IMG/VR virus record: IMGVR_UViG_3300021446_000040
Origin: an uncultured virus (IMG/VR IMGVR_UViG_3300021446_000040)
Lineage: Duplodnaviria > Heunggongvirae > Uroviricota > Caudoviricetes
Strand: one strand, 5' to 3'
DNA: 20,000 bases
Shown: positions 1-20,000 of the stretch, piece by piece
Layout of the letters: every line of letters starts with the position of its first letter
Numbering within the stretch: the stretch's first letter is position 1
Position numbers and translations under genes: made by a program
The notes under the pieces: model-generated
The model's input: only the letters and a program-made list of their open reading frames with translations
What the model was told of the DNA's origin: nothing
Database searches by the model: none

Positions 1-2710
1 ATGTACGACCGGCTTTCCGGGGTAAAGGAAAAGGTGTCAACGCCCGCGCCTGGTACGCTTTGGGCCGCGCCATAGTCGGTATCTATTTCACCGTCCTTGT
101 AGGCACGCCAGGGTAGGGGTTCGTCCCGGTAGACCGGATGAATCACGCTTTCGCGCCCCGTATCGAACTTGATGTATGGCACTTTGTCGCCGCGACCAAG
201 CTTCGCGCCGTCGATGTACCCGGCTTCGACCGCCGCGTTATACATCTTCGCGGCCCTGGCGTGCGCGGTATGGTTCGAATACGTATCACAGCTACAGTCG
301 TCGCGGTCACACACGCATGACAGCCGTTTTCGAAGCGACGCACGCTTTACCAGGTCGCCGTCGCGGTCGCCGTCTAACACGGCGTCGCGTTCGTCTAAGA
401 TAATCGGCGCGGTCGGTTCATCTTCTAACAGCGCTTCGACCAAGCGCGCTTGTAGCTTCGACGCGCCCTTTAGCGTGTCCGACTTCTTGCACTTCAGGCC
501 TACTACCTTGTGTTCGTCCGTTGACTTTCCATCTTCCCAAACTTTCTTTACTGCATACGACTTTTTCTTATCGGTCTGAATGAACCGCGACGCGACATAA
601 TCTACGTCCAGTTCTATGAACGATTCGTCGCCGTTCATTTTAAAGCCGACAAGGTGCTTGATATGCCGATTCAGACTGTCTACGACGGCTTCCGCCGCGT
701 CCGCCGCGACTTTGGCGCTGTCGTAGTCGTCCTTCAGGCTGATAAAGACGCTATCAGTGTCGCCGCCGATCACTTGGTCTACAGCGTCTATTTCGTTTTC
801 AACGAACCGCCGGCTTTCGCGGATTAGGTACTGGCCGGTTTCGGTAATGTGTTCGGACATACCAGGGACGTAATAGCGGTGCAATGGCGACGCGACCACG
901 CCGAACGACGAATTATACAGGGACTTGATACCCATATACATAGCCGCCGCGACTTTCTTTTCAGGCGTGCCGTTTTCCGCCGCGTTCCGGCGATCTTTAA
1001 ATTCTTGTGCCAAATCTTCCAAGTCCGACGTAGCATCGGCCAGTATGCCCCGTTCGTAATCTGGATGCAAGAATCCGCCGCGCGCGTCGCCGTCCTTTTC
1101 AGGGTCGAAGCGGCTGTTAACACCTTCGATAAACGGCTGTTCCGTGTTCGCCCAATAGTCGCCAGGTCCGTCAGCCGTCTTGTTAACGTCTAACAGCTTC
1201 GGTTTCGTTATGATTTCCCGGTCGTCCAAATAGTCGCCGACTTCTTCTTTCAGCCCTTCGTACCCGTCCGTATCAACCCAAGTGTTTTCGCCCATGTTTA
1301 GCGCCTGAATGATGCTTGGATACATCGAACTGAAGTCAGCGACGAACACCCATTCATGCGTTCCCGGCGTCGTTTCGAACACGTNNNNNNNNNNNNNNNN
1401 NNNNNNNNNNNNNNNNNNNNNNNNNNNNNNNNNNNNNNNNNNNNNNNNNNNNNNNNNNNNNNNNNNNNNNNNNNNNNNNNNNNNCTGAAGTCAGCGACGA
1501 ACACCCATTCATGCGTTCCCGGCGTCGTTTCGAACACGTAGCCGCCCGGAAATTCGCCAGTGTCGCGGTAGCGCCCGCGATCGGGAAACACGTAGCCCTG
1601 TTCGTTCGCGCGGCGCAAGATCACACCGTCAACAGCCTTTCCGACCGCGACGCGCGGATAGCCGTTGCTGTCGTAGGTGATCGTAGACATTCGCGTATGC
1701 CCCTGTTTGCACACGCGCGCGGTCGTTTCGACAAGTAGGTACTGTTCCGAAATGCGGCGCGTTAAGTCCGCGTCCTGTAGGTTATACGACTTCAGGCGTT
1801 CGGGGTCATTATTCCACCATTCGCGTAGTTGCTTGTACGATTCGCTTTCATCCATATCCTTCGAATCGCCTAATTCGTGTTCGGCGACCGAATCCAGGCC
1901 ATAGCTGTCTAATTGGTCGCGCTTGAACGACCGGAACAGCCCCATGGCGTCGAAATGGATCAAGCCAAATTCCGGCCAGGTAAAACCCGAAACCCGGTCA
2001 CTTTCTTCAAGCCGGTTTTTCAGGTACGGCAGATCGAACGATTCGCTATTCCACCCGACAAGCACAAAGTAGTTTTCCAACAGACCGCCGTCGGAACGAT
2101 CGGCCGGGTTCCCTATCAGTTCGGTATAGATTTCCTGTTCCGTGCCAGTGATGAAAAATTCGTTGCCTTCGCCGTCAACCGCCGCGAAGGAAAGGATTTG
2201 CGCGTCCGCGTCGTCCGGTTCGGGGAAGCCGTCGGTCGGGTCTACTTCTATGTCAAAGTATAGCACGTCCCCCGGATCGGGCGTATCCAGTTCAAGTAGG
2301 TCCGGGCGATCGATTAAGACGCGCCTGGCATAAGGCACGTCAGCCTGGTAGGTTTCCGGCACTATGTCAGCGTCGCTTTGCGGCATATCGGCCAGGTCGT
2401 CCCGAAGGTCGTCCAATTCGTTGCGAAAGCTACCGATCGTTCCGGGCGCTTCGGCTTCTACTTTCACGAAACCGTCCGGCGCATTATCGTAGTCCGGGTT
2501 CGTCCAAGCTTCCCACAGTTCGGTCTTGGACGTATCCAGTTCGCCCCATGGAATGTTATCAAAGTCGCCGACTTCCATGTAGAAGTACGGGTTGAACGGC
2601 GCTTTGAACTGTTTGCGCCGCTTTTCGCCGTTTTCTTTCATTAACAGTTCTACGTATAGTGGATCGTCCGTATTGTCGAACCCGTATTGCAGGTCGTACA
2701 CGCGGGACAT
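1..2710 (-). CDS. polB: Family B DNA polymerase, archaeal type, 3' end outside the window (>850 aa after collapsing the gap)
   Basis: ExoI YFDIEV, ExoII GWNSESFDLPYL, ExoIII YNLQD. Bases 1330-1384 are repeated at 1485-1539 across the N gap; collapsing them gives motif A DFSSMYPSII, motif B KSLYNSSFG (900-926), motif C GGDTDS (750-767) and KKKSY. The frame is open to base 1 by manual translation. Confidence 0.96.
1330..1539. other. Assembly gap (100 N, 1385-1484) flanked by an exact 55-nt duplication; scaffolding artefact
   Basis: ctgaagtcagc...cgaacacgt occurs on both sides of the gap; removing one copy plus the Ns restores the polB frame. Confidence 0.9.
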
Positions 2711-2767
2711 TACAGCCCGGCGCTTTGCCCCCCAAAGACTAAAGCGTTGCGTACCGCATTAGTAAGC
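2711..2767. promoter_or_regulatory. Probable divergent promoter region for polB and the DUF6378-like gene
   Basis: 57-nt spacer with a central AT-rich core (aaagactaaag, 2734-2744) about 25-30 nt from both start codons, as expected for leaderless haloarchaeal transcripts. Confidence 0.5.
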
Positions 2768-3103
2768 GTGACAAGCGATACAGCAATCTTGGACGAAGCA
2801 AAGCAAATCGTCAACGAACGCGAAAGCATGAACGGGCCGGCGATCCAAAGCATGACTACGATTCGCCAACTGTGGAATGTCTACCTTGGCGAAGCGTATC
2901 CCGACATTACGACGCGCCAAGCGGCGGTCATGCTTGCACTGCTGAAAGTCGGCCGGCACACGCACGGGGATAACGGTATAGACGACGCGCGCGACATTGC
3001 CGGCTACGCAGAACTGGCCGCGCGGGTCGAAGAAGAACCAGGCGATCACACCTGTTGCGACTGCTGTATCAACGACGAAACGGGGCCGGTTAACAAGTTT
3101 TAG
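2768..3103 (+). CDS. DUF6378-like small alpha-helical phage protein with a Cys-rich tail
   Basis: ILDEAKQIVNER..G...W.VYLG....A.MLALLKVGR......D...DIAGYA resembles the DUF6378 pattern. GTG at 2768 preferred because the longer ORF overlaps polB. C-terminal HTCCDCC. Confidence 0.75.
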   Translation: MTSDTAILDEAKQIVNERESMNGPAIQSMTTIRQLWNVYLGEAYPDITTRQAAVMLALLKVGRHTHGDNGIDDARDIAGYAELAARVEEEPGDHTCCDCCINDETGPVNKF

Positions 3104-3109
3104 ACGCCG

Positions 3110-3988
3110 TTAGTCGTCGTCCCAAACGCTACCCCCGACCTTTTTACATTCGTCTACGAACGGACAGAACCGCATACAGTTATCCGGGTCTATCGGGTCG
3201 GTCGCCGGAATGGTATCTTCTTGGCGGTTGTTATAATGCAGGTACGCGCGCTGTACGATTTCAAGCCAAACCTTCGCTTCTTGCGGTACGCGGTAGCGCC
3301 TTTCATCCAGTTCGTTGCGCGTGATATAGGTTAGTTCGCCTGGCGCGTCGAACGCCTGCTGATAGGTCGCCAACTGGTATTGATGCTTCGGTCTGAAACC
3401 ACGCTTGTTAAAGCGATCAAGCCAGTCTAATTTCTTGATCGTTTTGGTTTCAATTACCCGATCGATTGACCCATCATATTCCGACCATTCGCGCACAGTA
3501 TCGATCGACGGGTAGCCTTCGATTTCTTCGTTGTAAGACGACTTAGCGTACCGCTGTCCGTCCTGGCCGTCGAACACGTAGGCAACATGGCCGCGACCTG
3601 GCGCGTCAACGTTGAACACTACCCAATCCGATTCGCCTACGATCCGAAGATAGCCATTCGGCGCGTCGTCCGCCGGCAGAAAGATCGTACAGCCCACGTC
3701 CTGCCGAACGCGCTTGTCGCCAAATTCTTCCCGAAGCGCGTCGCCGTATCTATCTTCAATGTCATTCCCCAAGGGAAAATATGGCGACGCTTGGGGTTCT
3801 TTCCCGTTCTTGTGCGCCCAATATTCTTTCCGCTGGCACTTGGCAACGTGGGACGCATGAACGTCGGTATCAACCGCTTTATGGCGACCTGGATCATGGC
3901 GATCAACGTATTCGGCTTCAAGCCATTTCGGGATTAGTGGATCAAGCCGTCGAAAAGAACCAGTATCTTCCGCCGCCGTCAATTCCAT
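3110..3988 (-). CDS. Solo Cas4-like / PD-(D/E)xK RecB-family nuclease with four Cys (probable Fe-S cluster)
   Basis: ASHVAKCQRK (C51), GESD (D121), IETK (E180/K182), QLATY, CMRFCPFVDEC (C271/C275/C281). No CRISPR array or other cas genes in the window. Confidence 0.85.
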   Translation of the reverse strand: MELTAAEDTGSFRRLDPLIPKWLEAEYVDRHDPGRHKAVDTDVHASHVAKCQRKEYWAHKNGKEPQASPYFPLGNDIEDRYGDALREEFGDKRVRQDVGCTIFLPADDAPNGYLRIVGESDWVVFNVDAPGRGHVAYVFDGQDGQRYAKSSYNEEIEGYPSIDTVREWSEYDGSIDRVIETKTIKKLDWLDRFNKRGFRPKHQYQLATYQQAFDAPGELTYITRNELDERRYRVPQEAKVWLEIVQRAYLHYNNRQEDTIPATDPIDPDNCMRFCPFVDECKKVGGSVWDDD

Positions 3989-4010
3989 ACGTTAACCTGT
4001 GCGCGGTCGG

Positions 4011-4259
4011 TTAAATAAGTGTCGCCAGGTAGATACTGAAAGCGCCGAACAGCACAGCGACGACCGCCGCAACATACGGCGCACCGAACAGCAGTAAGAT
4101 AGCTTTCGTTATGCTAACCTTCCCCGCCAGTTTATGCCAAGACCACCTGAAATCGCGCTTGATGCTAACCAGGCCATGAACATAGCCGGCGAAAACCATT
4201 AACTGCGTCAGCCCATACGCAACCGCGACGCTGGCCCACAGGGTATCAATCGCTTCCAT
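4011..4259 (-). CDS. Small 2-TM membrane protein (82 aa), paralog of the adjacent gene
   Basis: Two hydrophobic segments around a basic loop (SIKRDFRWSW); ATG at 4259 lies 22 nt after the upstream stop. Confidence 0.75.
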   Translation of the reverse strand: MEAIDTLWASVAVAYGLTQLMVFAGYVHGLVSIKRDFRWSWHKLAGKVSITKAILLLFGAPYVAAVVAVLFGAFSIYLATLI

Positions 4260-4281
4260 ACTTTGCACTACAGCCGCGCGG

Positions 4282-4527
4282 CTAAATAATTGACGCAAAC
4301 CACAGCACGCCCACAACGAACAGCGCCGCAGTAGTCGCGCCCCAAGCCGGCATTACAATCGCGTCGAAAGCGATTTGCGGCGTTTTGACCTGTGCGAACG
4401 CTTCGCCCCACGTTAGGCTTCGCTTCCGCTTCAGGCTAATTACAGACCATGAACACATAATTAGCACCATTAACAGAACGATCGGGTAGGCCAGTGCGAA
4501 CGCTAACCAAACCAAGCGCCATTCCAT
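4282..4527 (-). CDS. Small 2-TM membrane protein (81 aa; alternative start 4536)
   Basis: Two hydrophobic segments around a basic loop (SLKRKRSLTW); TATA-like AAAAATATAAA about 25-35 nt upstream of ATG 4527. Confidence 0.75.
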   Translation of the reverse strand: MEWRLVWLAFALAYPIVLLMVLIMCSWSVISLKRKRSLTWGEAFAQVKTPQIAFDAIVMPAWGATTAALFVVGVLWFASII

Positions 4528-4547
4528 ATTCCGCATACGGCAGGCGT

Positions 4548-4562
4548 GAATTTATATTTTTC
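4548..4562. promoter_or_regulatory. Bidirectional TATA-like element
   Basis: gaatttatatttttc lies between divergent starts at 4527 (-) and 4581 (+), roughly 25-30 nt from each. Confidence 0.6.
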
Positions 4563-4580
4563 CGTGCCTATTATATGCGT

Positions 4581-4937
4581 ATGGGAATGGTAACGGAACC
4601 GCCCGACCGTATTTCCGTGCGTAGGCTTACCAAAGCATACGCGGCGAATGACATTTCTACTGAAGAACTAATGCGAACCCTTCAGGAAAGCTATTCGTTT
4701 CACGAACAGATAGAAGTGATTAGCAGTCCGAAGGCCGGCGTGCTTACCATTTCCTATAACCCTGATACACACCCGACCTTACACAAGAAGCTGAAAGGCG
4801 CTGGATGGGAAACCGACGGCATAGTAATCGACGCTTATCAGACGCCCGAATCCATCGAACGCACACAGCCAGGCCGCGTCGCTACCTACAAGCTTGGTAA
4901 CAAATCAAGCAACCGCATGACTATCTTTCGCGGCTGA
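4581..4937 (+). CDS. Hypothetical protein (~118 aa)
   Basis: ORF fills the space between minus-strand genes; TTTATA at 4551-4556 fits a start at 4581 (4575 or 4587 also possible). No family recognised. Confidence 0.7.
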   Translation: MGMVTEPPDRISVRRLTKAYAANDISTEELMRTLQESYSFHEQIEVISSPKAGVLTISYNPDTHPTLHKKLKGAGWETDGIVIDAYQTPESIERTQPGRVATYKLGNKSSNRMTIFRG

Positions 4938-4939
4938 TT

Positions 4940-5122
4940 TCAGCTTGTTAAACTTGCCAAGCCACTAACGACCGCCATGAACAGCAGGTAGGCAACAGTC
5001 AACTGAAGCACTGTCGCGGCGGCTGTGTAAGAAATCAGAAACCCGGCAGTGAACCAGGCCGCGACCGCTATAACGATGAAAATAGACGTAACAGCGGCCA
5101 AGGCTAACGCGCCGTTATCCAT
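4940..5122 (-). CDS. Small 2-TM membrane protein (60 aa)
   Basis: Almost entirely hydrophobic; upstream TTTTTTACG at 5145-5153. Confidence 0.7.
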   Translation of the reverse strand: MDNGALALAAVTSIFIVIAVAAWFTAGFLISYTAAATVLQLTVAYLLFMAVVSGLASLTS

Positions 5123-5171
5123 ACGGTTACTTTTGCCGCGCCCGCGTAAAAAAGTGCGGTCTAAGGCTACG

Positions 5172-5567
5172 TTAACGGGTAACTTCTTGTCGCGCCTTTC
5201 GCGCTTGCCAACTGGCCGTTTCCGTGTCCGTTCGCGCTTCGCGGATTTCTTCTTCCACTTCCGGCGGTCCGTCGTATTCGCCCCACAGCGCGCCGGCTTC
5301 GGCTTCGGCCAATTCCAAGAAGGCCATTAGCACGTCCGCGCGGTGAATCCCCGCCGTTTGGACGAAGATACCGCCTTCGGCGTCGCGTTCCTGTACGATC
5401 GCTTCGAACGTATCGAAGCCGCCAGGTTCTTCAGCGTAGTCACCTTCGGCGTCTACGTTTTCGCGCATGGTCTTGATCGCCGCTTGCACCCGGCGCGCCA
5501 GTTCTTCGCGCGGGTTGTCCGCGCGCTTCAGCGCTTCCCGAATGTCCGGCTGTGCTGTTTCAGACAT
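5172..5567 (-). CDS. Hypothetical acidic protein (131 aa)
   Basis: Start overlaps the upstream stop (TAATG); halophile-like composition. Confidence 0.8.
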   Translation of the reverse strand: MSETAQPDIREALKRADNPREELARRVQAAIKTMRENVDAEGDYAEEPGGFDTFEAIVQERDAEGGIFVQTAGIHRADVLMAFLELAEAEAGALWGEYDGPPEVEEEIREARTDTETASWQARKARQEVTR

Positions 5568-6367
5568 TATGCTTCGATCACCGTACCGTTTTCTTCCCGA
5601 AGCCCGGCTTCAAAGAGCACGTCGTCTAAGTCCGCCGGGTCGTCCGCCATTTGGTCTACGAACGCCGCCAGTTCCGCGCGTTCGACTACCTGCCCGTCCT
5701 GGCTTTGGACGTAAACGCGCGCCGCTTCAGCGCCCGCTGAAAGGTCGCCAGTGTCGCGGTCGTCGTTGAAGCTAACGTCGTCGTCGTCGCTTGCAAGCGT
5801 CGAAAGGTCCTGTTTTTCATCTTCCGACCCGGTTTCGATCGGGCGGCTGTCGTCCCGCTGTCCGCTGTAGTTTTCCCGCGCCGCGCGGAAAGCGTCAGCG
5901 TGTTCGTAGTCGTCGTTATCCCACGATTCTTCAGGCATAACGCGACTGTCGAAGATGTACGCGGACGACGGTGCCCATTCGACTTCTTTCGAACCTTCGC
6001 ACCGAATGATAACCGCTTCGCCGATTTCCGCGTGATTGACGTAGCCCAAGCCGCCGTGATCCGACATTTCCAAGCCGTCGCCGACTTCAAGATCGACAAA
6101 GCCGGCGTTATCCGGTGCATCCGGGTCGTAGACCCTGATACCTTCGACGGGTTCGGCCAGTGCAATGATAGCGTGTGGCTGTTCGCTATCGTAAGGCGGG
6201 GTCGTTCCCGCCATGACCACGCCCGAAACCGTCTGTGGTTCGTTCGGGTCGGGCTTCCAGTTCTTAGCGTATTCTACCTGTTCGCCTTTCGCGCCGCTTG
6301 CCGCGTCGTCTATTCCGATCATACTTGTACGCGGGTCCGGGGCTTTTCTTTTGCCCGGTTGACCCAT
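5567..6367 (-). CDS. Putative OB-fold single-stranded DNA-binding protein with acidic linker and possible C-terminal winged helix
   Basis: WKP....V.G ... IGE.V.I.CEG.K ... Y.F beta-strand pattern resembles viral OB-fold SSBs; D/E-rich linker; helical C-terminal domain ending in a beta hairpin; replication-module context. Function inferred. Confidence 0.5.
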   Translation of the reverse strand: MGQPGKRKAPDPRTSMIGIDDAASGAKGEQVEYAKNWKPDPNEPQTVSGVVMAGTTPPYDSEQPHAIIALAEPVEGIRVYDPDAPDNAGFVDLEVGDGLEMSDHGGLGYVNHAEIGEAVIIRCEGSKEVEWAPSSAYIFDSRVMPEESWDNDDYEHADAFRAARENYSGQRDDSRPIETGSEDEKQDLSTLASDDDDVSFNDDRDTGDLSAGAEAARVYVQSQDGQVVERAELAAFVDQMADDPADLDDVLFEAGLREENGTVIEA

Positions 6368-6379
6368 TTAGACACATAG

Positions 6380-6395
6380 ACGGCAGGCGTAAAAA
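6380..6395 (-). promoter_or_regulatory. Putative promoter TTTTTACG followed by motif ACGCCTGCCGT
   Basis: T-tract about 21-28 nt upstream of ATG 6367; the 11-mer recurs at 4537-4547 in an equivalent position. Confidence 0.5.
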
Positions 6396-6403
6396 CCTGG
6401 CGT

Positions 6404-7261
6404 TTAGTTGCTTTCAGTAGGGTTTTCGCCGATAATATCACACATTTCAGCCATGCGGTTTCGGACCGTAACAGTAGACACGTCGCCGATTTCCCCCGCT
6501 TCAGTTTGCGTTACGGGTTCGTCCGCGAACTGTGCGGCTAAGTACACAGCGCCGGCCGCAACGCCGCTTGGATTTTTGCCGTTGTCGTATTCAGACCCGC
6601 GCCAGGCGTCGATTAGTTCCCGCGCGTGCGCGTCGTCTACGCCCGCACGCTGTGCATAGCGGCCTACGTATTCTTCCGGGTCCATGATCGGTGTTACCAA
6701 GTCATAGCGCCGGCGAAAGTTGCGGTACGCTACGTCCGCGTCCGCCTTGTCCGGCAGGTATTCTTCGATTTCATGCAGTGACCTGGTAGCCCCGTTCTGC
6801 CGGCAGATAATATAGAAACACGCGCCGCATACGCCTTCAAGCGTCAGCGCTATCAGCCCGTCCGAATGAACCTGTTTGAACAGATACGCGGCCTGTTCGA
6901 TATAGCTTTCAGGCAGGTCTAAGGCCGCGCCTAAACGGTTTATCTCCGATAAACCGGCTTCCCTTGTGTGGCTGTTTTCCGTCCGCGCGCGGTATTCTTG
7001 GTGCCGCATACGCGACCGTTTCAGCGGGTCGCTTGTGTCGTTCGTCGCGGTCATTCGCGTGCGCAAACCGTTATCCGGCAGGCGATTCGTGCGTTGCGCG
7101 CCAGTGCGCCGGCGTTCTTCGATTTCTTCGCTGTTGAACGCGCGCCATTCAGCGCCCCGGTCTATCGGTTCATCGTCGTAGACAAGCCCGCAGGATTCAC
7201 AAAACGTTTCCTTGTCGGTTGTAGAAACCCGTCCGTTACATTCTTCGCAGGCAAAAGCCAT
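6404..7261 (-). CDS. tfb: Transcription initiation factor IIB (TFB) homolog
   Basis: Zn ribbon CEEC...CESCGLV, B-reader IDRGAEWRAF, cyclin repeats (EINRLGAALDLP...RSLHEI; GKNPSGVAAGAVYLAA), C-terminal HTH QTEAGEIGDVSTVTVRNR. Confidence 0.95.
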   Translation of the reverse strand: MAFACEECNGRVSTTDKETFCESCGLVYDDEPIDRGAEWRAFNSEEIEERRRTGAQRTNRLPDNGLRTRMTATNDTSDPLKRSRMRHQEYRARTENSHTREAGLSEINRLGAALDLPESYIEQAAYLFKQVHSDGLIALTLEGVCGACFYIICRQNGATRSLHEIEEYLPDKADADVAYRNFRRRYDLVTPIMDPEEYVGRYAQRAGVDDAHARELIDAWRGSEYDNGKNPSGVAAGAVYLAAQFADEPVTQTEAGEIGDVSTVTVRNRMAEMCDIIGENPTESN

Positions 7262-7285
7262 TAATAAAAGTTATCCCGGCGCTAC

Positions 7286-7293
7286 TACTTAAA
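7286..7293 (-). promoter_or_regulatory. TATA box of tfb (TTTAAGTA)
   Basis: Typical haloarchaeal TATA box 25-32 nt upstream of ATG 7261, implying a leaderless transcript. Confidence 0.7.
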
Positions 7294-7296
7294 CCG

Positions 7297-7419
7297 TTAC
7301 ACATATTCCGGCGCTGTCTTGCAATGCACACATTCTTTCAGCACGCCGTCTATAGAAAACGCGCGCCAGTACGACGGTGATACACTACGCCCACAGTTAG
7401 AACAGATACGATCGGCCAT
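7297..7419 (-). CDS. One-domain micro zinc-finger protein (40 aa, CPxCG-like)
   Basis: MADRICSNCGRSVSPSYWRAFSIDGVLKECVHC has two CxxC motifs, typical of haloarchaeal small zinc fingers; ATG 7419 avoids overlap with the upstream gene. Confidence 0.8.
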   Translation of the reverse strand: MADRICSNCGRSVSPSYWRAFSIDGVLKECVHCKTAPEYV

Positions 7420-7444
7420 ACGGCCTGTAAAAGCGCGGCGGCTT

Positions 7445-8025: not shown

Positions 8026-8136
8026 GGTCTTACGAACGCCGCCAAGTACGAAAGGTTAACGGTCGCTTTCGCGCCGCTGAAATCGGCCCCTATTGTAGAA
8101 AGGACTGAAATGTGATTTAGGGCTAAGATCGGCTAA

Positions 8137-8236
8137 NNNNNNNNNNNNNNNNNNNNNNNNNNNNNNNNNNNNNNNNNNNNNNNNNNNNNNNNNNNNNNNN
8201 NNNNNNNNNNNNNNNNNNNNNNNNNNNNNNNNNNNN
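8137..8236. other. Assembly gap (100 N, true size unknown)
   Basis: N run with no flanking duplication; hides the end of the primase-helicase gene. Confidence 0.95.
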
Positions 8237-10728
8237 TTTTGCTTGGCGCGATCGGCGCGCACTTTCGAACCGCCAAACGCTATACCAGTGCCGCTATTTA
8301 GTTTGCCGATCGTTTCGGCTACGTCCGCGACCTGCTGATTCGGGCTTCGGTCCGTTGCTAATTTCACAACGGTCACACCGCCCATGACAGGCGCAAAGTC
8401 ATCCATGTACCGCACTGGTTCGGGCGGGTCGCCGTGTATCTTTTCGTGGACTTCAGTCATTAATGTAATGTCATTACCCGCGAACCAGTAGGTAGCATCT
8501 TCCGGCAGGTCTTGAAAGACGCGGCCTGTGTCGCCGACTATATCTATGCTCTTTTCGTTGCCGTCAGCGCGCGTTAACACGCCCTGAAGGTCGTCGTCCG
8601 GGTCGTGGTATAGTATATTCAGCAGTTCGCGCGCATGACCTGGATAGTTATTCTTCAGCCGTTTTCGCGTTTCGAAGAAGTCGGCTTCGGGCTGTAGTTC
8701 GGCCAGGCGTGCGCGAATGTCGGCTACAAGGTCGTGGTATGCGTTATCATTTTCGCCCCATGATTCGACGCCGCTTTCTTTTATCAGCGCCGGCAGTTCT
8801 AAGATAAATTCGGCGACGGCTTCTATATCGTCGTGAATCCGGTCGGTTCGTTCTAAGTCGCCGATCCGTTCGATTATGTGTTCTGCTGTACCTGTTAGCC
8901 CATCCAGTGCGCCCATGCTTGTGCCGGTCTTGTAGCCTGTGCGTTCGCTTTCGAAGATTGTAACGCTTGAACTTATCAGCCGGCTTAGGGATGCTTCTTC
9001 GCTGGTAATTATCAGGTCAAAGTCGTTTTCGGTCGTCCGAACCACGTCTAACTTTTCGGGAACTGTTACCACGACGCGCGCTTCTTGCGCGCCTTTTACG
9101 ATCGCCTGGTACTGGTTCTTTTCAGGATGGATTTTTTCAAGCGCGTCCCATGGGTCTTTAGCGGTCTGTTCGGGGTATTCGTCGCTACTGTAGTTAAGCG
9201 GTGTGTCGTTTTCGCCCCATCCGCTTCGCGCCCATCGGCGACCGCCAAGGTACGCGGTTTCAACGTTCATGTTAACCAGTTTGTCGCGCGTCGCTTGGGC
9301 TTCTTGATGCGACGGCGCGACATATACGGCGCGGTTGAAGTTATCCGCTTTCAGTTCTTCGCGGATGTTTCGGACGATTTCATAGCTTTTGCCCTGGCGC
9401 GCGATTCCCTGCATGGTAAGGTGTTTGTCAGCGCCCGCGTCGCTTTCGTCGTATTCGTTGCTGGCAACGTGTTCATCTACAGACCCTTCCGCGCCTTCGA
9501 CCTTATCACGGCCTAACGGGACGTTAGCCTTGTTACGGAGCCATTCAAGCGCCTGGTTGTATTCGTATTTCGTAAGGTGTTTGCCGTCGGTATCAGTGTC
9601 GTATTCGCTTGGCGCAAACATATCGTCCGCGTCGCGTAGACCGGCTTCGATCACCGCCCACATTAGACAGCGGTACGGTACTTTGTCCTGCTGTTCGATC
9701 TGTTTGCTGGCCTTGGCGTATTCCCAGGCCCAAAACAGCGCTTGGGGGTTTCCTGCAACGCCGGCGTTTTCGCCGCCAAAGTCCGCGCCAAGGTATCCGC
9801 AGTCGGAATTATCGTCGTACCCCCGCGACGCCAAGGCACAAAGCGAAAGTGCGTTGTGCGTACAGCTATGGCCTTCGCGGAAGCACCACACTGTCTTTCC
9901 GTTATATTCGGCGTTCGTTCCGGTTTCGCTACCGTGTAATGGGTGTGCGTGCTTGTCGCCGCTAAGGTCGCCGCCCATTGCCGAATAGACCTGGCCGGTA
10001 TTCAGGTCAAACAACTGGCTACGTTCGCCGTCTACGCTTTGGCTGAAGTCGGTATCCAGTTCGTCCCACGTCGTGCGGTTCTTCGCGGCGCGCTTGATCT
10101 TGCGGTATTCTTTCCGCGCACGCGCACGAAGCCAGGAACGCGGTAGTTCGCGCATACCAAGCGTAGGCAGTTCGTCGCCGCTCGGCACGTTTTCGACGGT
10201 GTAGACCGGCGCTTCGTCGTCCGGCACTTTATCAGCCGGGCGGTAGCTACCCGGCGCGTACATAAGCTTCGCTACGTTAGTGTTCCGAAAGTCGGCGATA
10301 GTGCCGTCGCCGTCCCATTTTTCGGGAATACCGATGCTATCTAAAAGGATTTCATCGTCCGGGTCGTCCGGCTGTGCATAGTACAAGTGCGTGCCGCCCG
10401 AACGCGACCTGATTCGTAGCGTCGGCTTGAACGATTCGCCGTGTGACTGTCGGACCTGTTCGTTATCTTCGTCTATCGCGTGAAAGCGATCGCCCTGCTG
10501 AAAGATAAAGGCGACCGCGTGTGATCCGGCGTCGTTCTTGTGCTGTTGTAGGTACTTCAGCGCTTCGTGGGCGGTTAGGCGGCTTTCGGGTTCGCTTTGC
10601 CACTGTTGATCGAAGAAACCGCCGTCGCCGCTGTTCGTCGTATAGCGCTTTTCATCCAGCGCGACGCCGGCCAGCTTGCGCATGGCTTCGGCGAAAGTAG
10701 AAAATTCGCGCGGACACGTGCCTTCCAT
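8237..10728 (-). CDS. Prim-pol (AEP superfamily) + Zn-binding domain + SF2-like helicase/ATPase fusion; C-terminus in the gap
   Basis: AIDED (DxD), SRSGGTHLYY, DFR...YAPGS; HPLHGSETGTN...WCFREGHSC; Walker A GIARQGKS (9385-9408), motif Ia VYVAPSH, motif Ib VVVTVPEKL, Walker B-like LIITSEEA. Confidence 0.8.
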
Positions 10729-10768: not shown

Positions 10769-11227
10769 CTACTTCAAGCGCTTACCCCTTGGCGGGATAA
10801 GCGCGTCAATGACTTCAGACTGAATCCGATCGCCGTAATAGGACGTAATGAATCCTAATACGGTGCTGTAGATCAAAAATACCAGCGCGCCGACAGTGAT
10901 CATGTAGATGGGTAGGCGTTCGCCTGGCACGTATTCAGCGCCGCCTACGAACAGCGTGCCTAAGCCGGTCGCCAGTAGGCCGATAATCGCTAAGAACCGT
11001 TCGACTTGTGCATCGGATCGCACTTCAGCGACCCAAAGGAAATATGCGACCCATGCGAAACAGTTTCCGCCGGTAGCTAAGTAGACTTCAGGGGCGTAGT
11101 AGCCGCGATTAACGACCGTGTAGACGGACAGCAGTATCAGCCCCAAGCTGGATAGCGCCAAGACGTTTGTAACGCGCTTTCGCTTTTCCGGGTCGTTTTC
11201 GTGACTGTACGATATGAGTTTTTCCAT
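10769..11227 (-). CDS. 4-TM membrane protein (152 aa), possibly lysis-related
   Basis: Four hydrophobic segments, charged termini, directly downstream of the holin-like gene. Confidence 0.75.
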   Translation of the reverse strand: MEKLISYSHENDPEKRKRVTNVLALSSLGLILLSVYTVVNRGYYAPEVYLATGGNCFAWVAYFLWVAEVRSDAQVERFLAIIGLLATGLGTLFVGGAEYVPGERLPIYMITVGALVFLIYSTVLGFITSYYGDRIQSEVIDALIPPRGKRLK

Positions 11228-11576: not shown

Positions 11577-12752
11577 TTAATATAGATTTTCGATGAAATA
11601 ATCGCCGCCTGAAGGCATCTTAACCTTCAGGTCCGTGCTTCCGCCGTCTTTATCTTCGATATAGATAGCGGCGCTTTCGCGCGGAATGTTGTAGTTTGAC
11701 GGGTCGCCGCCAAGAATGGGAATTGGTTGCATGGCGTCGCCGTTCACAAATTTCTTATTCGTCTCATCTATGGTACGGGTATCCCATTCGATCGGTTCAT
11801 CCGCGTTGTTATTCGCGGGCGCGACCGCGAACGTAATAGACGGTTGTGGGGCGTCGCCCGCGCCTGGGTAGTTGCTGTTCATGCCGATCAACGCATGGGG
11901 TTCGTTAGCAACGATAGACCGCCAAGAAGCATCGGGGCCGGGGTCGGTCGCCGAAAGCGGATTGTCGTAGTCCCAATAAGCGTTCCAAGCCCAAGCAACC
12001 CTGCCGTGTCCGCCTTGATGGGATTGCACAAAGTCAGACGTGCCGGCGGCATACCGGATGTATTCGCCGTCGCTTTCGCCGGGAACGCCGCGCGCATCTT
12101 CGCCGCGTTCGAATACGTAAGTTCCCATTAACACGTCACTTTGATCCGACCGCACGAAATTGCCAGGCTGATAGCCCCGGAAGAACTGGCTGTTTTCGGC
12201 GCGATCGACCGGGACGGAATTATCGCCTTCGTAGCGGGCGTTCCGGTAGTTCACACGGGTTGTAAGCGGCCTGCGGTTAGACGTAGCGGTGATACTTGAT
12301 CCGTCGCTGTTAACGTCCCATATCGCCAAGCGCGGCGCTTTACGACCGGATAACACGATGTTACTTTCTGTGTCTATGATTAGCCGGTCTGTGCGCGTGC
12401 GGTCAACCGCCAAGTAGATCGTTTCATCGGACGAATTAGCCGGAATGTCTACGTCGTGAACGTTATTCCCGGTCACTTGGTCGGTTTCGGCGCGGTCGTC
12501 GCTTGCAAGATAGTGTCCGCCAAAGGCGGCTTCGCCAGTATCGATCGTTACTGTCAGCCCGTTCGTTTCGAAGATACCAAAGGCGTTTAGCGGGCCGTCT
12601 AAGATTTCATTATCGGCGGTCGCTAACAGGTCCTTATCAGTCGGCACAACGTATTCGTCGCCCGACTGTGCGATCGCTTCGGCCAGGCGCATAGAATCGA
12701 CGTTTCTTTGGTCGGTGCTATCGCCGTGCGTAGGTTCTGTAACAACAGTCAT
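11577..12752 (-). CDS. Tail fibre / receptor-binding-like virion protein (391 aa)
   Basis: N-terminal GLTVTIDTGEAAFGG...IPANS...IYLAVD adaptor-like domain; FRGYQPGNFVRSD resembles the LDG.....F.RSD fibre motif; Trp-rich C-terminal domain; last gene of the tail block. Confidence 0.6.
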   Translation of the reverse strand: MTVVTEPTHGDSTDQRNVDSMRLAEAIAQSGDEYVVPTDKDLLATADNEILDGPLNAFGIFETNGLTVTIDTGEAAFGGHYLASDDRAETDQVTGNNVHDVDIPANSSDETIYLAVDRTRTDRLIIDTESNIVLSGRKAPRLAIWDVNSDGSSITATSNRRPLTTRVNYRNARYEGDNSVPVDRAENSQFFRGYQPGNFVRSDQSDVLMGTYVFERGEDARGVPGESDGEYIRYAAGTSDFVQSHQGGHGRVAWAWNAYWDYDNPLSATDPGPDASWRSIVANEPHALIGMNSNYPGAGDAPQPSITFAVAPANNNADEPIEWDTRTIDETNKKFVNGDAMQPIPILGGDPSNYNIPRESAAIYIEDKDGGSTDLKVKMPSGGDYFIENLY

Positions 12753-14142: not shown

Positions 14143-15689
14143 AATTGCACACCTTCGAACCCTAATTCAGTGTAAATCTTGAACCCGTTGTAGTCGCGTT
14201 TCTTTTCGGTTACAACGTAATCGCCGCTTACCATTATGTTTTCGTAGCCTTCTATTTTAACCTTGTCGCCTATATCCAGGTTAACGACCCGTTCGCTGTC
14301 TAAGTATTCGGGCTGAAACTGGCTTGGCGGGTAGCCGGACCTGGCCAGTTTCGCGTCGGCAGTATCGCGGACAGCCGCGCCGCTTTCTAAGCCTTCGTTA
14401 ACGATCCGACCGTCTACCCGGCGGTACTTGTCGATGCTTTCGTTCAACGGCTTTTCTACACCGACGGGCTTCGGAAAGTAAGCAACATATGCCGGGTCTG
14501 TGGGGTTTCCGTTCGCGTCGGTTTGCACGCCTATGTCAAAGGCCGAATCGCCGCTTTCGGTATCTACGATCAACCAGATTTCCCGATCCGGTATCTTGTG
14601 TTCGGCCAGGCGAAATGTCGTAAAGCCGTCGTCGTCGTAGGCGACCTTTCTTTCGCCGCTTCCGATAATGTCCGAATCGGTATCACCGGGTTCGATCGGC
14701 CCACTGCCGTCCTGTTTGCCGATCTGGATTCGTGCGCGCACGCCGTTAGCATCCGGGTCGTCCGCCGGCGGTGAATCGGACCGCTTTTTGGTATAGATTT
14801 CAAAGCTTGAAATTTCGCTTTTGCGGGTCGCTATCGGCGTTGTAAGCCGGTTCGTATCGCTTACGGTTACTGTATCGTCTACAGTCCGCTGTGCGTCTGT
14901 TTCATTATTTTCGTCGTCTATACCGCCTACGACGCGCACGTTGTTAACCAAGCCCCGGTCTGTGGTTTCTTCGACGGCTTCGCCGGCAAAGTCAGCCGGT
15001 CCGACGGGTTCTGATAGCCGGTAATCCAGGTCGCGGATTTGCTTGAAGCGAAGCGACCCGCCTTCGCCATACCAGATAATCGGCCCGTAAAACTGTGCCG
15101 CGCGGTCGGCAATTTGGCCGATCACTTTATTCGCTTGTACGCCCTTTACGAAAAAGTCGATTCGTTCGTCTAATTTGGGAAGCGCTTGCCGGCCGATTTC
15201 CGGCGCGTTATCACGTAAGACCTGATTAAGAATCGCGCCGGCGCTTCCGCTTATCGGCCTGTTGGTTTCGGTAAAGTCTACGTCGCGGTCCGATAATATG
15301 CCGTTAGCAAAGCCAGTTAGACGCAGTTCGACTTCAGTCGGCCGCGCCTGTTCGCGGTTCCGTGTGACGTTTGTTATCATAAACGATGCTTCCTGTTCCC
15401 ATCCGCTGAATGGCCCCGCGCCGAACGGTCCCGCGCCAAATTCAGCGCCGGGGTTGTTTTGCACCTGTAAAACCAGCTTGTCTTTCAGGTGTAGCGGTTT
15501 ATCGCCGGACGTGTACTTGGCCGAACGGTTGTCTACCGTTAGGTTTCCGGTGTTTCGCGGTTCGCCGCTCTTTTCGGTCGTAGACATATCTAAAACGTCG
15601 GACGTTTCGATGTAAAAATCAGTAACCGCGTCTGTCCGCGCTTTAGATACCGCTATCTCAAAGTCGTCCGCGTTAAAAAATTCGACCAT
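14139..15689 (-). CDS. Baseplate hub / Tal-like tail tip protein (516 aa)
   Basis: LTVDNR..KY, LVNNVRVVGG, SIDKY, ADAKL....P, LDIGDKVKI...YVVTEK motifs as in hub proteins; FGAGPFGAGPF repeat. Confidence 0.7.
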   Translation of the reverse strand: MVEFFNADDFEIAVSKARTDAVTDFYIETSDVLDMSTTEKSGEPRNTGNLTVDNRSAKYTSGDKPLHLKDKLVLQVQNNPGAEFGAGPFGAGPFSGWEQEASFMITNVTRNREQARPTEVELRLTGFANGILSDRDVDFTETNRPISGSAGAILNQVLRDNAPEIGRQALPKLDERIDFFVKGVQANKVIGQIADRAAQFYGPIIWYGEGGSLRFKQIRDLDYRLSEPVGPADFAGEAVEETTDRGLVNNVRVVGGIDDENNETDAQRTVDDTVTVSDTNRLTTPIATRKSEISSFEIYTKKRSDSPPADDPDANGVRARIQIGKQDGSGPIEPGDTDSDIIGSGERKVAYDDDGFTTFRLAEHKIPDREIWLIVDTESGDSAFDIGVQTDANGNPTDPAYVAYFPKPVGVEKPLNESIDKYRRVDGRIVNEGLESGAAVRDTADAKLARSGYPPSQFQPEYLDSERVVNLDIGDKVKIEGYENIMVSGDYVVTEKKRDYNGFKIYTELGFEGVQF

Positions 15690-15701: not shown

Positions 15702-18700
15702 TTATTCCTGGTTGAAATAGTCTAAGGTGTTCAACATGGTCACAAAGCCGGCGACCAATTCGGCGCGCGTTAGTTCGGACGGATCGCCCTGCGGGATTTC
15801 ATCGGGAACGTCCGGCAGGTCCGGCGCGTCCTTGGGCGGTTCCGGNNNNNNNNNNNNNNNNNNNNNNNNNNNNNNNNNNNNNNNNNNNNNNNNNNNNNNN
15901 NNNNNNNNNNNNNNNNNNNNNNNNNNNNNNNNNNNNNNNNNNNNNGATTCGCCAGGCACGCTAATCCCATCGGGCCGGCGTAGTTCGCGGCTACCCGTGT
16001 AGTCGTTCCCGTCGATCCACACGTTGATTTCAGGCGGGGCAATGATGTTTGTAACCGACCCTTCGATAATGAAGGCGTCGCCGCCATTCAGCGCTAAGAC
16101 GCCGTGAATCGCCGCCTGGCTGTCCGGGTTGATAATTTCGTCGTTGTCGTCCGCCTTTCTATCTTCTTGTGCGGGCGCGTCGGTTTCGACCTTGTACGCT
16201 TCCCATCCGGCCGGGTCGCCGCGTTCATCTTCAGGAACCCACTGGTTCCCGAACAGGTAGACCCTGCTGGTTTGGACGTATTCTTCGCCGCCGACTTCAA
16301 TAGTCAGCGCCGGGTCGCTTTCGATGTTAACGATTTCACCCGTAACGAAGAAGTCGTCGTCCGAATCGCCGGGAACCTGGCCCTTGATCGTAGCGTTCCC
16401 GTCGTTAAAGACGATGTTATCCGAATTGCCCGACAGTCCGCCTAAGCGGGCGTTACCCGTGACTTCAATGGTGTAAGACAGTTGATCGGTTGTACTGCCG
16501 TCGCCTTCGACGTAGATTCGGGTTTCATCTTCCGACGGCCCTTCGGGGTCGTCCGGCACTTCCGGCGGTTCGACCGGAACAGTCGGGTCGGTTTCGTCCG
16601 GCTGTTCTGGTTCGGGGCGATCGGGGGTTTCGGGTTCTTCGACCGGCGCGGTGCTTACGGGGTCGCGCGGTTCGGTCGAAGGTTCTTCGACTTGATCCGG
16701 GGCGTATTCCACGCCGTCTACGTCGGTTTCAAAGTCCGCAACGCAGTCGCGGATTTCCAAGTCGTCGCGGCCAAGGTCAAAGGCATCGTCGCCGTCTACG
16801 TCGCCGCTGAAGTGACAGCCTTCCACAAGAACGCCCACGTCGCCCGACATTCCGCTTTCTTCTACGCGAAGGTGTGGAAGCTGGCCGGCGGTTTTCACCC
16901 GGCAGTTCCGCACTGTAGCGCGTCCGGCTTCGTCGTGAATGGCGATCGCCGCGTTACCTGGCGACCCGCCTTCGCGGTAGGTAACGTCACAATCTTCGAC
17001 AAGACAGCCGTGCCGGTCGCGCACGCGAATCCCGCGACTGTTTTCGCCCGACTGATTACCTTCCGACGTTTTCACCCGTTCGTCTACAACGATCGTTGCT
17101 TCGCGGGCGACCGAATCCGTGCTACCGATCCGAAGGTTCGCTACGTTGCTGTTCGTAAACTTCCCGCCTTCGACTACAACCCTGCCGTCGTTGCCATAGT
17201 CGCGGCCTGGATCGGAGCCATAGACTGCGTTATTCGTGAAACGACCCATTTCACAGTCACGCAGGAAAACGGTGCCTTCGTGCGACGAACTAACAAGAAT
17301 ACCGTTCGTGTCCGTCCCATCTTCTTCCGTGCCGCTGATTTTACACTGTGAAATCAGGCCCGTTTCGCCGCTGTTAACGTCGGTTGAAAAGCCTTTGGAT
17401 TCAGGCGGGTACTGGCCGCGATTTCTAATATGCGAAACGACGAACGTTTCGCCTTCGGCTTGCAAGCGTCCGCCGTATCCGTCCTGGCTGAAGTCGAATA
17501 CGAAATTACTAAACGCCCACGTATCGCCGTTGATAGTGATAAAGTATTCACCGGCGTTGTCCCGCGAACTGTTAGGTTCAAGAACGACTGTTTCGCCGGG
17601 TTCGCCGATAATGGCACAGTCGTTCATTTCAAGGCTAAGGTAGTCGGTCTGATATTCGCCGGCCGGAACGACTGTCACCGTATCGGTCGCGTTCGATGCT
17701 TCTTGTAGCAGGCCGGTAATGTCGTCGCCGTTATCTACGTCTAAGACGTTCTGGTTCGACAAGTCGGCCAGTGCTTCGTACTGTTCGTTCATAATCGTTA
17801 ATGGGTTAATTCCTGTGCTGTTGTCGCCGCCGCTACTTTCGTCGTCCGAATCGTCGTTTTCTACCGGAAGCGCGCCGTCCGTATCCGGTATCAGGTCGCT
17901 TGTGTAGCCGTTTTCCATAACGGATACGTCTAACGTATCGTCCGCCGACATTTTGAGCTGTCCGCGAATGTAATACGTATCCTGGCCGCCTTTGACGTAG
18001 CCGGTCGCGGCCTGTTGCATGGCTTTGTCGCCTGTGTTCGCCATAGCGCCGCGTCTTACGTCGTCCGCTTCGATCCGGTAATGACCTTCATTATCGTCGC
18101 CGCCGATTTTTACCCTGTGCCAAAGCGGTTCGGGCGCACTGTCGTCGCCGCTTCCCACGTGTGCGCGGCCGCCAGGTCCGAAGGCGTTATCACGGTTGAT
18201 CCAGTGTACCTTGTCAAAGCCTTTTACGCCGTCCGTATCTTCCGTGCTGTACGGTTTGTCCTTGTCTTTGTATTCGTCTAATTCTAAGTCGCCGCCGCGA
18301 TTTTCAGCCCACGTGTACCTATCTTCTAACCCCTGGTTAGTTTGCATGATCGCCGAACCGTTCCCGTCGTTCGACGTTTCGGGCGGTTCGGGCGGAACGT
18401 CGCCGGTGTAGTCGAAATGAACCGCGTAGACTTCATGGTAGTCGATCGGCGTTCCCCTGAAGTTAAACACTTCATTGACGCCGCCTTCAGCGTTGTTTTC
18501 GTTACCTTGTACGGTAATGTGGTGCCATACGGTTTTCTTCGAACCGGGTCGGTGTACGTCCAAGACGTGCGAAAACGGCGCGTTAGGGCCGCACGTATGA
18601 TACGCGATTTCCGTACAGTTGTCCCGACCGCCGTGTTCGACGTGATGCCGGCAGTTGTCGGTATAATTACCTATTACGACAGTCCGATCGGCCCACGAAC

Positions 18701-19280: not shown

Positions 19281-19322
19281 TACGGGGTTTAGTTCGTTCC
19301 CCGCTGAAAAAGATTCGGCGCG

Positions 19323-20000
19323 TTAACCTTCGCCTTTGTAGAAGTATTCGAACTTGGCAAAGTCGTTGTTAGCCCGGATCGCATACCCGTTCCCGTTAGT
19401 CGAACTTGGCGGGGTAAACGTTTCGTCCTGAAGGGGATTATCCAGGTCCAAGCCGTCGCCCATGATAACGCGACATTCGTCTGTCGCCAAATCCGGCGTG
19501 CGGTAATAGACCCTTACGGCGTATGTTTTGCCTGCCGTATAGGTCTGTACCTTTTGCACCTGGATTGTACCACTTCCGCCGTTGTAGTCCCACAAATTCC
19601 AATATTCGTTATCAGGCCGCATTTCTAATTCGGCCCAATCGGCGGACGATTGATCTTCGTAGGCAAACCTTATGTTACAGCCCATGTTTAGCGAATCAAG
19701 CGTAACGTGGAAAGTACCGATTTCTCCTTCCGCTAACAGGCCGGGCGATTCGCTTGTGTCGGTCTGTACCCATGCTTTCGACGCGGACGTTTGGTTATTC
19801 TTTATCGCGCTTGGCGACTGTGAAACGTCCGGGTTCGTAATGTCCCACCAGTCCACGTTATTGAAGTTTACATAGCCTAAGTCGGCGGTACTGTTAACAT
19901 CCCAATATTGCACCTGTGTCCGCGTTTTCGGCGTCGCGGTTACGCTTGGTTCGGGCGCGGTCGCGTCGCTTGTCTCCCTGTCGATATGATAGGTATAATC
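19323..20000 (-). CDS. C-terminal part of a virion protein with a ConA/LamG-like beta-sandwich; 5' end outside the window
   Basis: Frame stays open from 19913 to 20000 (DYTYHIDRETSDATAPEPSVTATPKTRTQVQYWD...); aromatic-rich beta-strand domain after a T/P linker. Confidence 0.7.
   Translation of the reverse strand, partial: DYTYHIDRETSDATAPEPSVTATPKTRTQVQYWDVNSTADLGYVNFNNVDWWDITNPDVSQSPSAIKNNQTSASKAWVQTDTSESPGLLAEGEIGTFHVTLDSLNMGCNIRFAYEDQSSADWAELEMRPDNEYWNLWDYNGGSGTIQVQKVQTYTAGKTYAVRVYYRTPDLATDECRVIMGDGLDLDNPLQDETFTPPSSTNGNGYAIRANNDFAKFEYFYKGEG

Follow-up and report, generated by a model that had tools for sequence, protein, structure and literature searches.

Can a DNA virus rid its genome of a word of only three bases, and what would make it do so? 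The question is raised by a 20,000-nucleotide stretch of DNA from an uncultured tailed virus (IMG/VR record IMGVR_UViG_3300021446_000040), here called the window, from which the trinucleotide GAG and its complement CTC are nearly absent. Three blocks of 100 undetermined bases (N) interrupt the window, and these 300 masked bases are outside all counts. The other 19,700 bases, with a guanine plus cytosine content of 54.7%, hold 13 GAG/CTC sites in total, five reading GAG and eight reading CTC on the plus strand, at a density of 0.66 per kb. A first-order Markov model expects 460, giving an observed/expected ratio (O/E) of 0.028, and base composition expects 657 (O/E 0.020). About 97% of the word is gone, that is, several hundred sites in 20 kb, and the runner-up in depletion among the 32 strand-symmetrised trinucleotides, GCA/TGC, stands at an O/E of 0.75. 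Each of the eight 4-mers that contain GAG occurs between 0 and 7 times where 150 to 185 copies are expected, and the purge is therefore independent of flanking context. A model that had seen only the letters and their open reading frames (ORFs), the source of what we call the original prediction, had listed 13 positions, none of them in 1–5614, and had supposed that several hundred sites should be present. The exact count returns the identical list, and the computed expectations of 460–657 bear out the supposition.

The purge acts on duplex DNA, and not on translation, codon choice or one RNA strand. All long ORFs of the window lie on the minus strand, and their codon usage is skewed in the way that the original prediction had noticed, with glutamate nearly always GAA (480 codons, against three of GAG) and leucine rarely CTC (four of 381 codons). 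The loss extends well beyond these codons. When synonymous codons were shuffled 200 times, keeping every protein and the pooled codon usage, 97.0 out-of-frame GAG were expected and four are found (the lowest shuffle values per frame being 35 and 37); for out-of-frame CTC, 98.4 were expected and one is found (lowest values 19 and 49). Pooled, this amounts to five sites against about 195. The 1,538 bases of non-coding DNA in the window contain none, where about 53 are expected. On the sense strand seven GAG and five CTC remain, a nearly equal rarity that would be expected if the duplex is what is recognised. The earlier claim that the effect is on DNA rather than on codons thus stands, since both strands, all frames and the non-coding DNA are purged. 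The genetic code allows synonymous removal of any GAG or CTC, whatever its frame. Consequently, even so complete a purge is affordable without any change of protein.

The purge is also confined to one lineage. Two 5.6-kb contigs from two other samples, L001 and L002, are 96–97% identical to the window and equally purged (GAG/CTC O/E 0.03 and 0.015, respectively); beyond the window, no other piece of the purged lineage was found in IMG/VR. The nearest non-purged relative is L015, an 11.5-kb IMG/VR locus (positions 1–11510) that has nearly all of its genes in common with positions 28–11227 of the window, at 65% amino acid identity over 2,272 aligned codons. In L015, GAG/CTC is enriched (O/E 1.41). 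A 52.8-kb IMG/VR contig (52,828 bases; G001, comprising L004–L006) is syntenic with the window over about 14 genes and has an O/E of 0.72, which is the generic viral baseline. At 126 conserved glutamate positions the window has 125 GAA and one GAG, against 44 and 82 in L015, and at 121 conserved leucine positions CTC is used three times in the window and 46 times in L015. The purge arose after the split from this sister lineage.

The relatives have purges of their own. L015 is depleted of CAG/CTG (O/E 0.30), with no ACAG, CCAG or CGCAG and three CAGC on both strands together, and it keeps 56 GCAG and 15 TCAG; at conserved glutamine positions it uses CAG for five of 30, against 19 of 30 in the window. 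G001 is purged of GATC (two against 231 expected, both strands), a word that is normal in the window (200 against 182). G001 is also low in CTGAAG (one against 12) and AGCGCT (none against 32). CTAG is missing from the window, G001 and L015 alike, and the palindromic hexamers and asymmetric words that are missing differ by lineage. For the window, both-strand counts against a maximal-order Markov expectation gave zero for CTAG (90 expected), CCGCGG (37), GGCGCC (28), TCGCGA (25), ACGCGT (19.5), GACGTC (19), GTCGAC (16.5), TCCGGA (14.5), GCAGC (19), ACTTCG (20), CTGAAC (16.6) and CCGTAG (13), and two for CCCAG (29 expected). One-letter neighbours of such absent words, CTGAAG and ACTTCA, are enriched. 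The list of avoided words is particular to each lineage, presumably reflecting the hosts of that lineage, and no word on these lists is shorter or more extremely depleted than GAG.

The way in which sites were lost can be followed by threading codons through ortholog alignments of the window with G001 and with L015. GAG codons of either relative have mostly become GAA in the window. Leucine CTC codons of L015 have become CTT (14), CTG (13), TTG (8), CTA (7) and TTA (4). Out-of-frame sites of L015 that fall in a conserved dipeptide were resolved synonymously in all 40 of 40 cases and in many ways (GAG to GCG eight times, CTC to CGC six, CTC to GTC five, CTC to TTC five, CTC to CAG four, and others), and the same mixed synonymous pattern is found against G001. 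The changes at lost sites include transitions, transversions, middle-base changes, serine switches from AGC to TCN and a 3-base deletion. A single mutational chemistry would not leave this pattern. An artefact of sequencing or of reading modified bases was ruled out as well, since the replacement letters differ, the protein is kept and the independent assemblies of several studies are purged.

Strain comparisons indicate that the purge is being kept up. Differences between strains were compared with 1000 simulations under a null in which codon position and class of substitution are preserved. L001 differs from the window by 148 substitutions, 112 of them at third codon positions, and these create three GAG/CTC sites where 19.3 are expected (standard deviation 3.9); the 218 between the window and L002 create one where 26.7 are expected. 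For both strains, none of the 1000 simulations was as low as the observation. Contigs of four runs show 536 variant places, and the 40 of these that were listed create no site where 4.6 are expected (P(0) = 0.007). Synonymous differences between GAA and GAG occur at one of 222 places between strains, against eight of 191 for the equivalent lysine and glutamine pairs, counts that are not independent because L001 and L002 overlap. Purifying selection prevents new sites from persisting today, and we hold it to be highly probable that the purge is real, acts at the level of DNA and is maintained by selection.

The few sites that remain are not fixed features of the lineage. L001 and L002 carry sites where the window reads GAA, TTC or GCG, and survivors turn over between strains. 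The survivor-free stretch 1–5614 was considered as a regional property and rejected, as L001 and L002 have sites there. Recounting confirmed the reported contexts of the 13 survivors (GAGC seven, GAGA five, GAGT one, GAGG none). Over the three strains, the base after the 17 distinct survivors is C in 11, A in five, T in one and G in none. The absence of GAGG from the survivors, in spite of the abundance of the neighbouring word GAAG, suggests that selection is stronger on GAGG/CCTC or weaker on GAGC. Escape from Type III restriction is associated with sites in a single orientation. No such pattern is present here, where the survivors on the plus strand are a mixture of both orientations.

The depletion can be placed against a broad background of viruses and cells. 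In 80 PolB-bearing viral loci (PolB being the family B DNA polymerase), GAG/CTC has a median O/E of 0.68 and a range of 0.56–1.41, and a value near 0.7 in one virus is therefore no signal by itself. The word is mildly low under the first-order Markov model in most of the 79 distant PolB loci (L016–L094), mostly at 0.56–0.81. In prokaryote loci (L095–L174) it ranges from 0.64 to 1.39, with a median of 0.88, and Halobacteria lie at about 1.0. The lowest O/E of any trinucleotide in the 80 other PolB-bearing viral loci is 0.30, that of L015, and the next lowest is 0.43. No trinucleotide falls below 0.1 in any of 39 background loci of at least 10 kb, in four other haloviruses or in the two close relatives, G001 and L015. 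Purged 4-mers were found in nine of the 39 background loci, and in the eight of these nine that were inspected they were palindromes only. The sampled cases of viral avoidance thus all concern words of at least four bases, in keeping with the earlier claim that such avoidance usually involves longer words.

Three hafunaviruses with known hosts (HJTV-3, Hardygib1 and VOLN27B; L012–L014) have normal GAG/CTC (O/E 1.06–1.07). CTAG is absent from all three, and GATC is absent from two and strongly depleted in the third. GGACC/GGTCC is absent from each of them (0, 0 and 0, against 92–107 expected), CACTG/CAGTG nearly so (0, 0 and 1, against 34–37), and each is annotated with a large type IIG-like restriction-modification (R-M) or methylase gene.

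Potential hosts were represented by 73 Halobacteria genomes, taken from 401 drawn evenly over the class; 43 of them contributed stretches of 20 kb and 30 contributed stretches of about 3.9 kb. A tRNA-probe listing of 80 loci was mostly bacterial, and only its three 20-kb haloarchaeal loci were used. In the 73 genomes GAG/CTC has an O/E of 0.88–1.14 and occurs at 28–59 sites per kb, with a median of 48.8; none is depleted, the true host possibly lying outside the sample. The contrast in site density between Halobacteria and the virus (48.8 against 0.66 per kb) is roughly 74-fold. That GAG/CTC is normally common in haloarchaea, as the original prediction had it, is apparent from these genomes, and L015 likewise has GAG at 82 of 126 conserved glutamates; a bias shared with the host finds no support in any of the 73 genomes. 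In short, the count lies far from expectation, out-of-frame sites are lost too and the sampled candidate hosts are without depletion, which are the three points on which the original prediction had staked itself.

Table 1. Features of the window; coordinates count from its first letter.
Feature	Position	Strand	Remarks
GAG/CTC-purged viral DNA	1..20000	.	13 sites against 460–657; coding and non-coding; both strands
Family B DNA polymerase, exonuclease and polymerase parts	3..2710	-	Pfam DNA_pol_B, DNA_pol_B_exo1, RNase_H_2; phrog_262
Cas4-like / PD-(D/E)XK-type nuclease candidate	3110..3988	-	phrog_1706, E 2.7e-9
Surviving GAG	5615..5617	+	CAG in strain L002
TFIIB/TFB homologue	6404..7261	-	Pfam TFIIB repeats and Zn ribbon; phrog_20431
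Surviving CTC	6944..6946	+	Also in L002; sole window survivor seen shared
Conserved protein of 890 residues	8056..10728	-	63% identical to L015, 38% to G001
Surviving CTC	8549..8551	+	GAT in contigs of runs X1, X2 and X3
Surviving GAG	9538..9540	+	Exact count
Surviving CTC	10181..10183	+	3-base deletion there in contig of run X2
Surviving GAG, sole GAGT	11216..11218	+	Exact count
Surviving CTC	11763..11765	+	Exact count
Conserved virion/tail-module protein of 516 residues	14139..15689	-	54–55% identical to G001 ORF after tape-measure and tail genes
Surviving CTC	15568..15570	+	Exact count
Surviving CTC	15657..15659	+	Exact count
Lineage-specific protein of 1192 residues	15702..19280	-	Place held in G001 by lectin/fn3 (ConA-like/fn3) tail protein
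Surviving GAG	17215..17217	+	Exact count
Surviving GAG	17955..17957	+	Exact count
Surviving CTC	19724..19726	+	Exact count
Surviving CTC	19974..19976	+	Exact count

The window belongs to a tailed archaeal virus and covers roughly a third of its genome (Table 1). The whole genome of the purged lineage is probably more than 50 kb long, of which about 21 kb is visible. The window proteome is acidic, with 9.5% aspartate and 7.9% glutamate. Fourteen public runs labelled as halite or rock metagenomes contain part of the window, and seven of these, from three studies (2016–2022), contain 31–86% of the sampled words. The PolB ORF is broken by an N block and continues past the left end of the window. 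Its product is 62–67% identical to those of L015 and G001 and only about 25% identical to hafunavirus PolB; named haloviruses are distant relatives only.

The Cas4-like candidate is 61% identical to its counterpart in G001 and 71% to that in L015. Being common to non-purged relatives, it is not specific to the purged lineage. The viral TFIIB matches TFBs in all 401 sampled Halobacteria genomes (E ≤ 1e-30), at 38–43% identity among the matches listed, and no genus stands out among these 401 as a signal of the host. Between viruses, the TFIIB of the window is 72% identical to that of L015 and 35% to that of G001. No family match in Pfam, PHROGs or PADLOC was found for the 890-residue protein. 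The 1192-residue protein has no counterpart at that place in G001, only a weak match of 24% elsewhere, and no relative of it was detected in named phages (tblastn) or in IMG/VR. Its gene position makes it a probable receptor-binding protein, and as a likely determinant of host range it has changed along with the list of avoided words.

In G001, capsid, tape-measure and tail genes are followed by those for TFIIB, PolB, an ERCC4 nuclease, a helicase, HNH and LAGLIDADG proteins, and its nuclease genes comprise two HNH, one LAGLIDADG, the ERCC4 and a Cas4-like gene. IMG/VR labels it a 'provirus', and Pfam scans show no integrase or evident host flank; its head-morphogenesis (Mu F-like) and capsid genes lie at opposite ends of the contig, which resembles the layout of a permuted virus genome. 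A search of the window, G001 and L001 for tRNA genes gave none. Scans with Pfam and PHROGs, and with PADLOC for window proteins, revealed no gene recognisable as one for a DNA methyltransferase or for base modification, either in the window or in the 52.8 kb of G001. Searches for further relatives returned nothing: megablast of the window against named phages gave no match, exact 40-mers from both window ends were not found in IMG/VR, scans of metagenome contigs with the PolB alignment and with the C-terminal part of PolB gave no relative, and the PolB alignment found no provirus or relative in reference genome contigs. Scans of IMG/VR with another alignment, the G001 helicase and the 1192-residue protein gave no further piece of the purged lineage.

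What kind of pressure could produce such a genome? The purge can be understood as an adaptive, protein-neutral recoding of the virus genome, in which each duplex GAG/CTC would itself be a liability during infection. A DNA-targeting activity would then read the three base pairs of GAG alone, at a small and roughly additive cost per site; a cost of this kind is suggested by the gradual loss of several hundred sites and by the 13 that are left. Most likely this activity would come from the host, or from another element residing there, and would be that of a restriction-like enzyme that either cuts or nicks frequently or depends on modification. The specificity domain of such a reader might be like the GAG-reading domains of Type I, IIB and IIG enzymes, but without a second half-site. 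The virus family, which has no recognisable DNA methyltransferase, would rely on avoidance of the word. We assign a probability of roughly 0.4 to a frequent cutter, nickase or modification-dependent system that reads GAG alone and is encoded by the host or a co-resident element.

Several considerations weigh against this outside reader. No stand-alone GAG reader from cells was found described in the literature, the available parts of archaeal methylome and R-M surveys list no site of less than 4 bp, and GAG methylation is not reported in the literature consulted on archaeal methylomes, as far as its accessible text goes. A host with such a nuclease would need to shield its own genome at about 49 sites in every kb, and no haloarchaeon among the 73 genomes sampled avoids GAG/CTC. 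With an efficient double-strand cutter, the 13 sites remaining in 20 kb would still be lethal, and there would be no gradient of fitness while hundreds of sites remain. A cutter of that kind fits poorly, and a low, additive cost per site therefore has to be assumed. In addition, the roughly 21 kb seen of a genome probably longer than 50 kb leaves room for a reader encoded by the virus, and sequence alone cannot fully part selection from a very fast, site-specific loss of GAG.

Ranked by the probability that we give them, the outside reader is followed by a nuclease of the virus, avoidance of a protospacer adjacent motif (PAM), pooled longer motifs, mutation and avoidance at the RNA level, with the remainder left to something not considered. 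A GAG-specific nuclease or nickase encoded by the virus would shred host DNA at about one site per 20 bp, its own genome being spared by loss of the word. This is unlikely in our estimation, even though it would draw on the roughly 74-fold contrast in site density, would face no problem of host self-protection and, if the enzyme were a nickase, would allow a few survivors to be tolerated at an additive cost for each site. Several nucleases and no recognisable methyltransferase are present in the family; chloroviruses encode frequent nickases that read 3 nt (PMC3017599), and the available literature describes HNH nickases of phages whose sites are short and asymmetric. Self-protection of the chlorovirus or T4 type, by a cognate methyltransferase or by base replacement, was not found, and protection would consist in loss of the word. 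In the visible 21 kb, however, Pfam, PHROGs and PADLOC reveal no nuclease specific to the lineage. Within the 9 kb that overlap L015, only ORFs 4011–4316 and 4282–4536 are without a counterpart, and these are small, overlapping and doubtful, with no family match; PADLOC gave no match for 13 window proteins, and Pfam at E ≤ 1 gave sub-threshold noise only for 11 small ones. Avoidance of the many further words (CTAG, GATC, palindromic hexamers) resembles ordinary evasion of restriction by hosts, which makes an outside pressure the simpler single cause, and a nuclease gained while the genome still held hundreds of sites would have been self-harming. More broadly, halite archaeal communities may harbour a stand-alone 3-bp DNA reader, with self told from non-self by whether a word is present or absent, and not by a chemical mark, in its boldest form through a virus-encoded nuclease, and with sister lineages doing likewise through ACAG, CCAG and CAGC; we regard this wider picture as doubtful.

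Avoidance of a CRISPR PAM, in which a host type I CRISPR-Cas system reads CTC or GAG, each site could be both a source of spacers and a target, and an arms race with primed adaptation strips the motif, is improbable. A 3-nt asymmetric word lost in both orientations has the shape of a type I PAM, the cost per site would be additive, the host would need no self-protection and PAM depletion in phages is documented (PMC4246573, PMC12174588). Yet the six haloarchaeal type I-B PAMs recorded in the available part of one study (PMC6546366) are not purged from the window (O/E 0.76–1.38), and one trinucleotide pair, TTC/GAA, is the most abundant in it. TTC/GAA is likewise enriched in three named haloviruses of Haloarcula, Haloferax and Halorubrum (O/E 1.27–1.31). 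Since this word too could be removed synonymously, PAM pressure evidently goes without a visible trace in cases of a known PAM. The published depletions, as far as the accessible texts report them, appear to be statistical tendencies rather than eliminations, and the avoided 4- and 5-mers of L015 are unlike type I PAMs.

Quite improbable is the option, part of the original prediction, that longer motifs with a GAG core (Type I, IIG, III and BREX specificities in the host population) have between them removed the word. GAG is a recurrent half-site (EcoAI, EcoEI, StyLTIII, PpiI; PMC3874165), the BREX site CTGGAG, which the original prediction had assigned to Haloarcula hispanica, is listed for Haloterrigena in the available source, and L015 shows such a pattern for CAG, where ACAG, CCAG, CAGC and CGCAG are lost or nearly so and GCAG is kept. 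The option fits the window poorly, where the loss is independent of context in all eight 4-mers. A bipartite specificity with a 4-bp partner touches, by our estimate, about one GAG in 256, and going from about 460 sites to 13 would call for roughly a thousand specificities in succession while the proteins diverged by only about 35%, an implausible number. A context-specific mutational process (a deaminase, a glycosylase or a repair bias of host or virus) that destroys GAG/CTC faster than it arises is more improbable still. Fast loss would also explain the few new sites between strains and the turnover of survivors, and the neighbours GAA/TTC, AAG/CTT and CAG/CTG are enriched. That enrichment follows arithmetically from the Markov expectation, however; the sites were resolved by all classes of change with no dominant substitution, leucine CTC was replaced by five codons rather than one product, and one mutational process cannot produce the many absent words of unrelated sequence. 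Scarcely credible, finally, is a MazF-like endoribonuclease that cuts transcripts at GAG or CUC. RNA phages do avoid ACA, at a relative frequency of 0.59–0.92 (PMC12151602), but a single RNA motif predicts loss from one strand, whereas both words are purged from the sense strand of a window with its long ORFs on one strand, and the non-coding DNA is purged too.

The outside reader of GAG would have consequences beyond this virus. Avoidance of motifs is a classic footprint from which restriction systems are inferred in genomes. The footprint in the window predicts an enzyme or RNA-guided system with stand-alone GAG specificity, of which no description was found. The prediction lends itself to direct testing, since natural DNA without GAG, sister DNA rich in it and the habitat are all known. 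A reader that is a nuclease would amount to a new kind of nickase or cutter acting very frequently, and one encoded by the virus would represent a new way of discriminating self from non-self, with genome-wide recoding as a mechanism of immunity. The window shows that recoding of a genome against a trinucleotide does occur in nature, which bears on ideas of recoded, restriction-proof DNA, and selection keeps the purge in wild populations sampled over several years.

How does this compare with known systems? The literature search, which left out most papers in subscription journals, turned up no DNA virus with a nearly complete purge of a trinucleotide, and motif avoidance was found described, in the accessible texts, only for words of at least four bases or as mild statistical trends. 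MazF and ACA in RNA phages (PMC12151602) offer a trinucleotide that is avoided because a nuclease reads it, in RNA and on one strand, at 0.59–0.92, unlike the DNA of the window, where both strands are at 0.02–0.03. PAM depletion in phages (Kupczok and Bollback 2014; Pseudomonas I-F CC, 2025) likewise concerns a word of 2–3 nt on either strand at an additive cost, but the under-representation reported in the available texts is modest, and the known haloarchaeal PAMs are not avoided in the window or in named haloviruses. GAG itself is recognised by a module of Type I, IIB and IIG enzymes, as in EcoAI (GAG-N7-GTCA), EcoEI (GAG-N7-ATGC), StyLTIII (GAG-N6-RTAYG) and PpiI (GAG-N5-GTTC), and a GAG-reading target recognition domain methylates the A of GAG (PMC3874165). 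These enzymes require a second half-site at a fixed distance, whereas the purge of the window needs a reader of GAG alone.

Chloroviruses are protected from their own nickases by methylation. Two of these nickases, Nt.CviQII (R^AG) and Nt.CviPII (^CCD), are stand-alone readers of about 3 nt of DNA (PMC3017599), and no others were found described in the literature. They act as the purge of the window implies, but they are enzymes of eukaryotic viruses, and no homologue or methyltransferase was found in the window with Pfam, PHROGs or PADLOC. RAG, the site of Nt.CviQII, was excluded as the purged word, since AAG is enriched in the window (O/E 1.45).

The broadest likeness is to restriction-site avoidance in haloarchaeal elements, where the loss of CTAG and GGCC has been linked to host R-M or Mrr systems (PMC11431627, PMC11001535). 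The words known there are palindromic, of 4–6 bases, with cognate enzymes known or predicted, unlike the word of the window, which is asymmetric and 3 bp long, with several hundred sites per 20 kb gone and no cognate reader known. As in motif avoidance generally, the word is under-represented against both composition and codon-preserving nulls, is lost on both strands and differs among relatives. The window, its relatives and the three hafunaviruses are alike without CTAG, and in the window, as with CTAG, GATC and GGCC elsewhere in haloarchaea, a short word is lost from both strands of a mobile genome, with a list of words that depends on the host.

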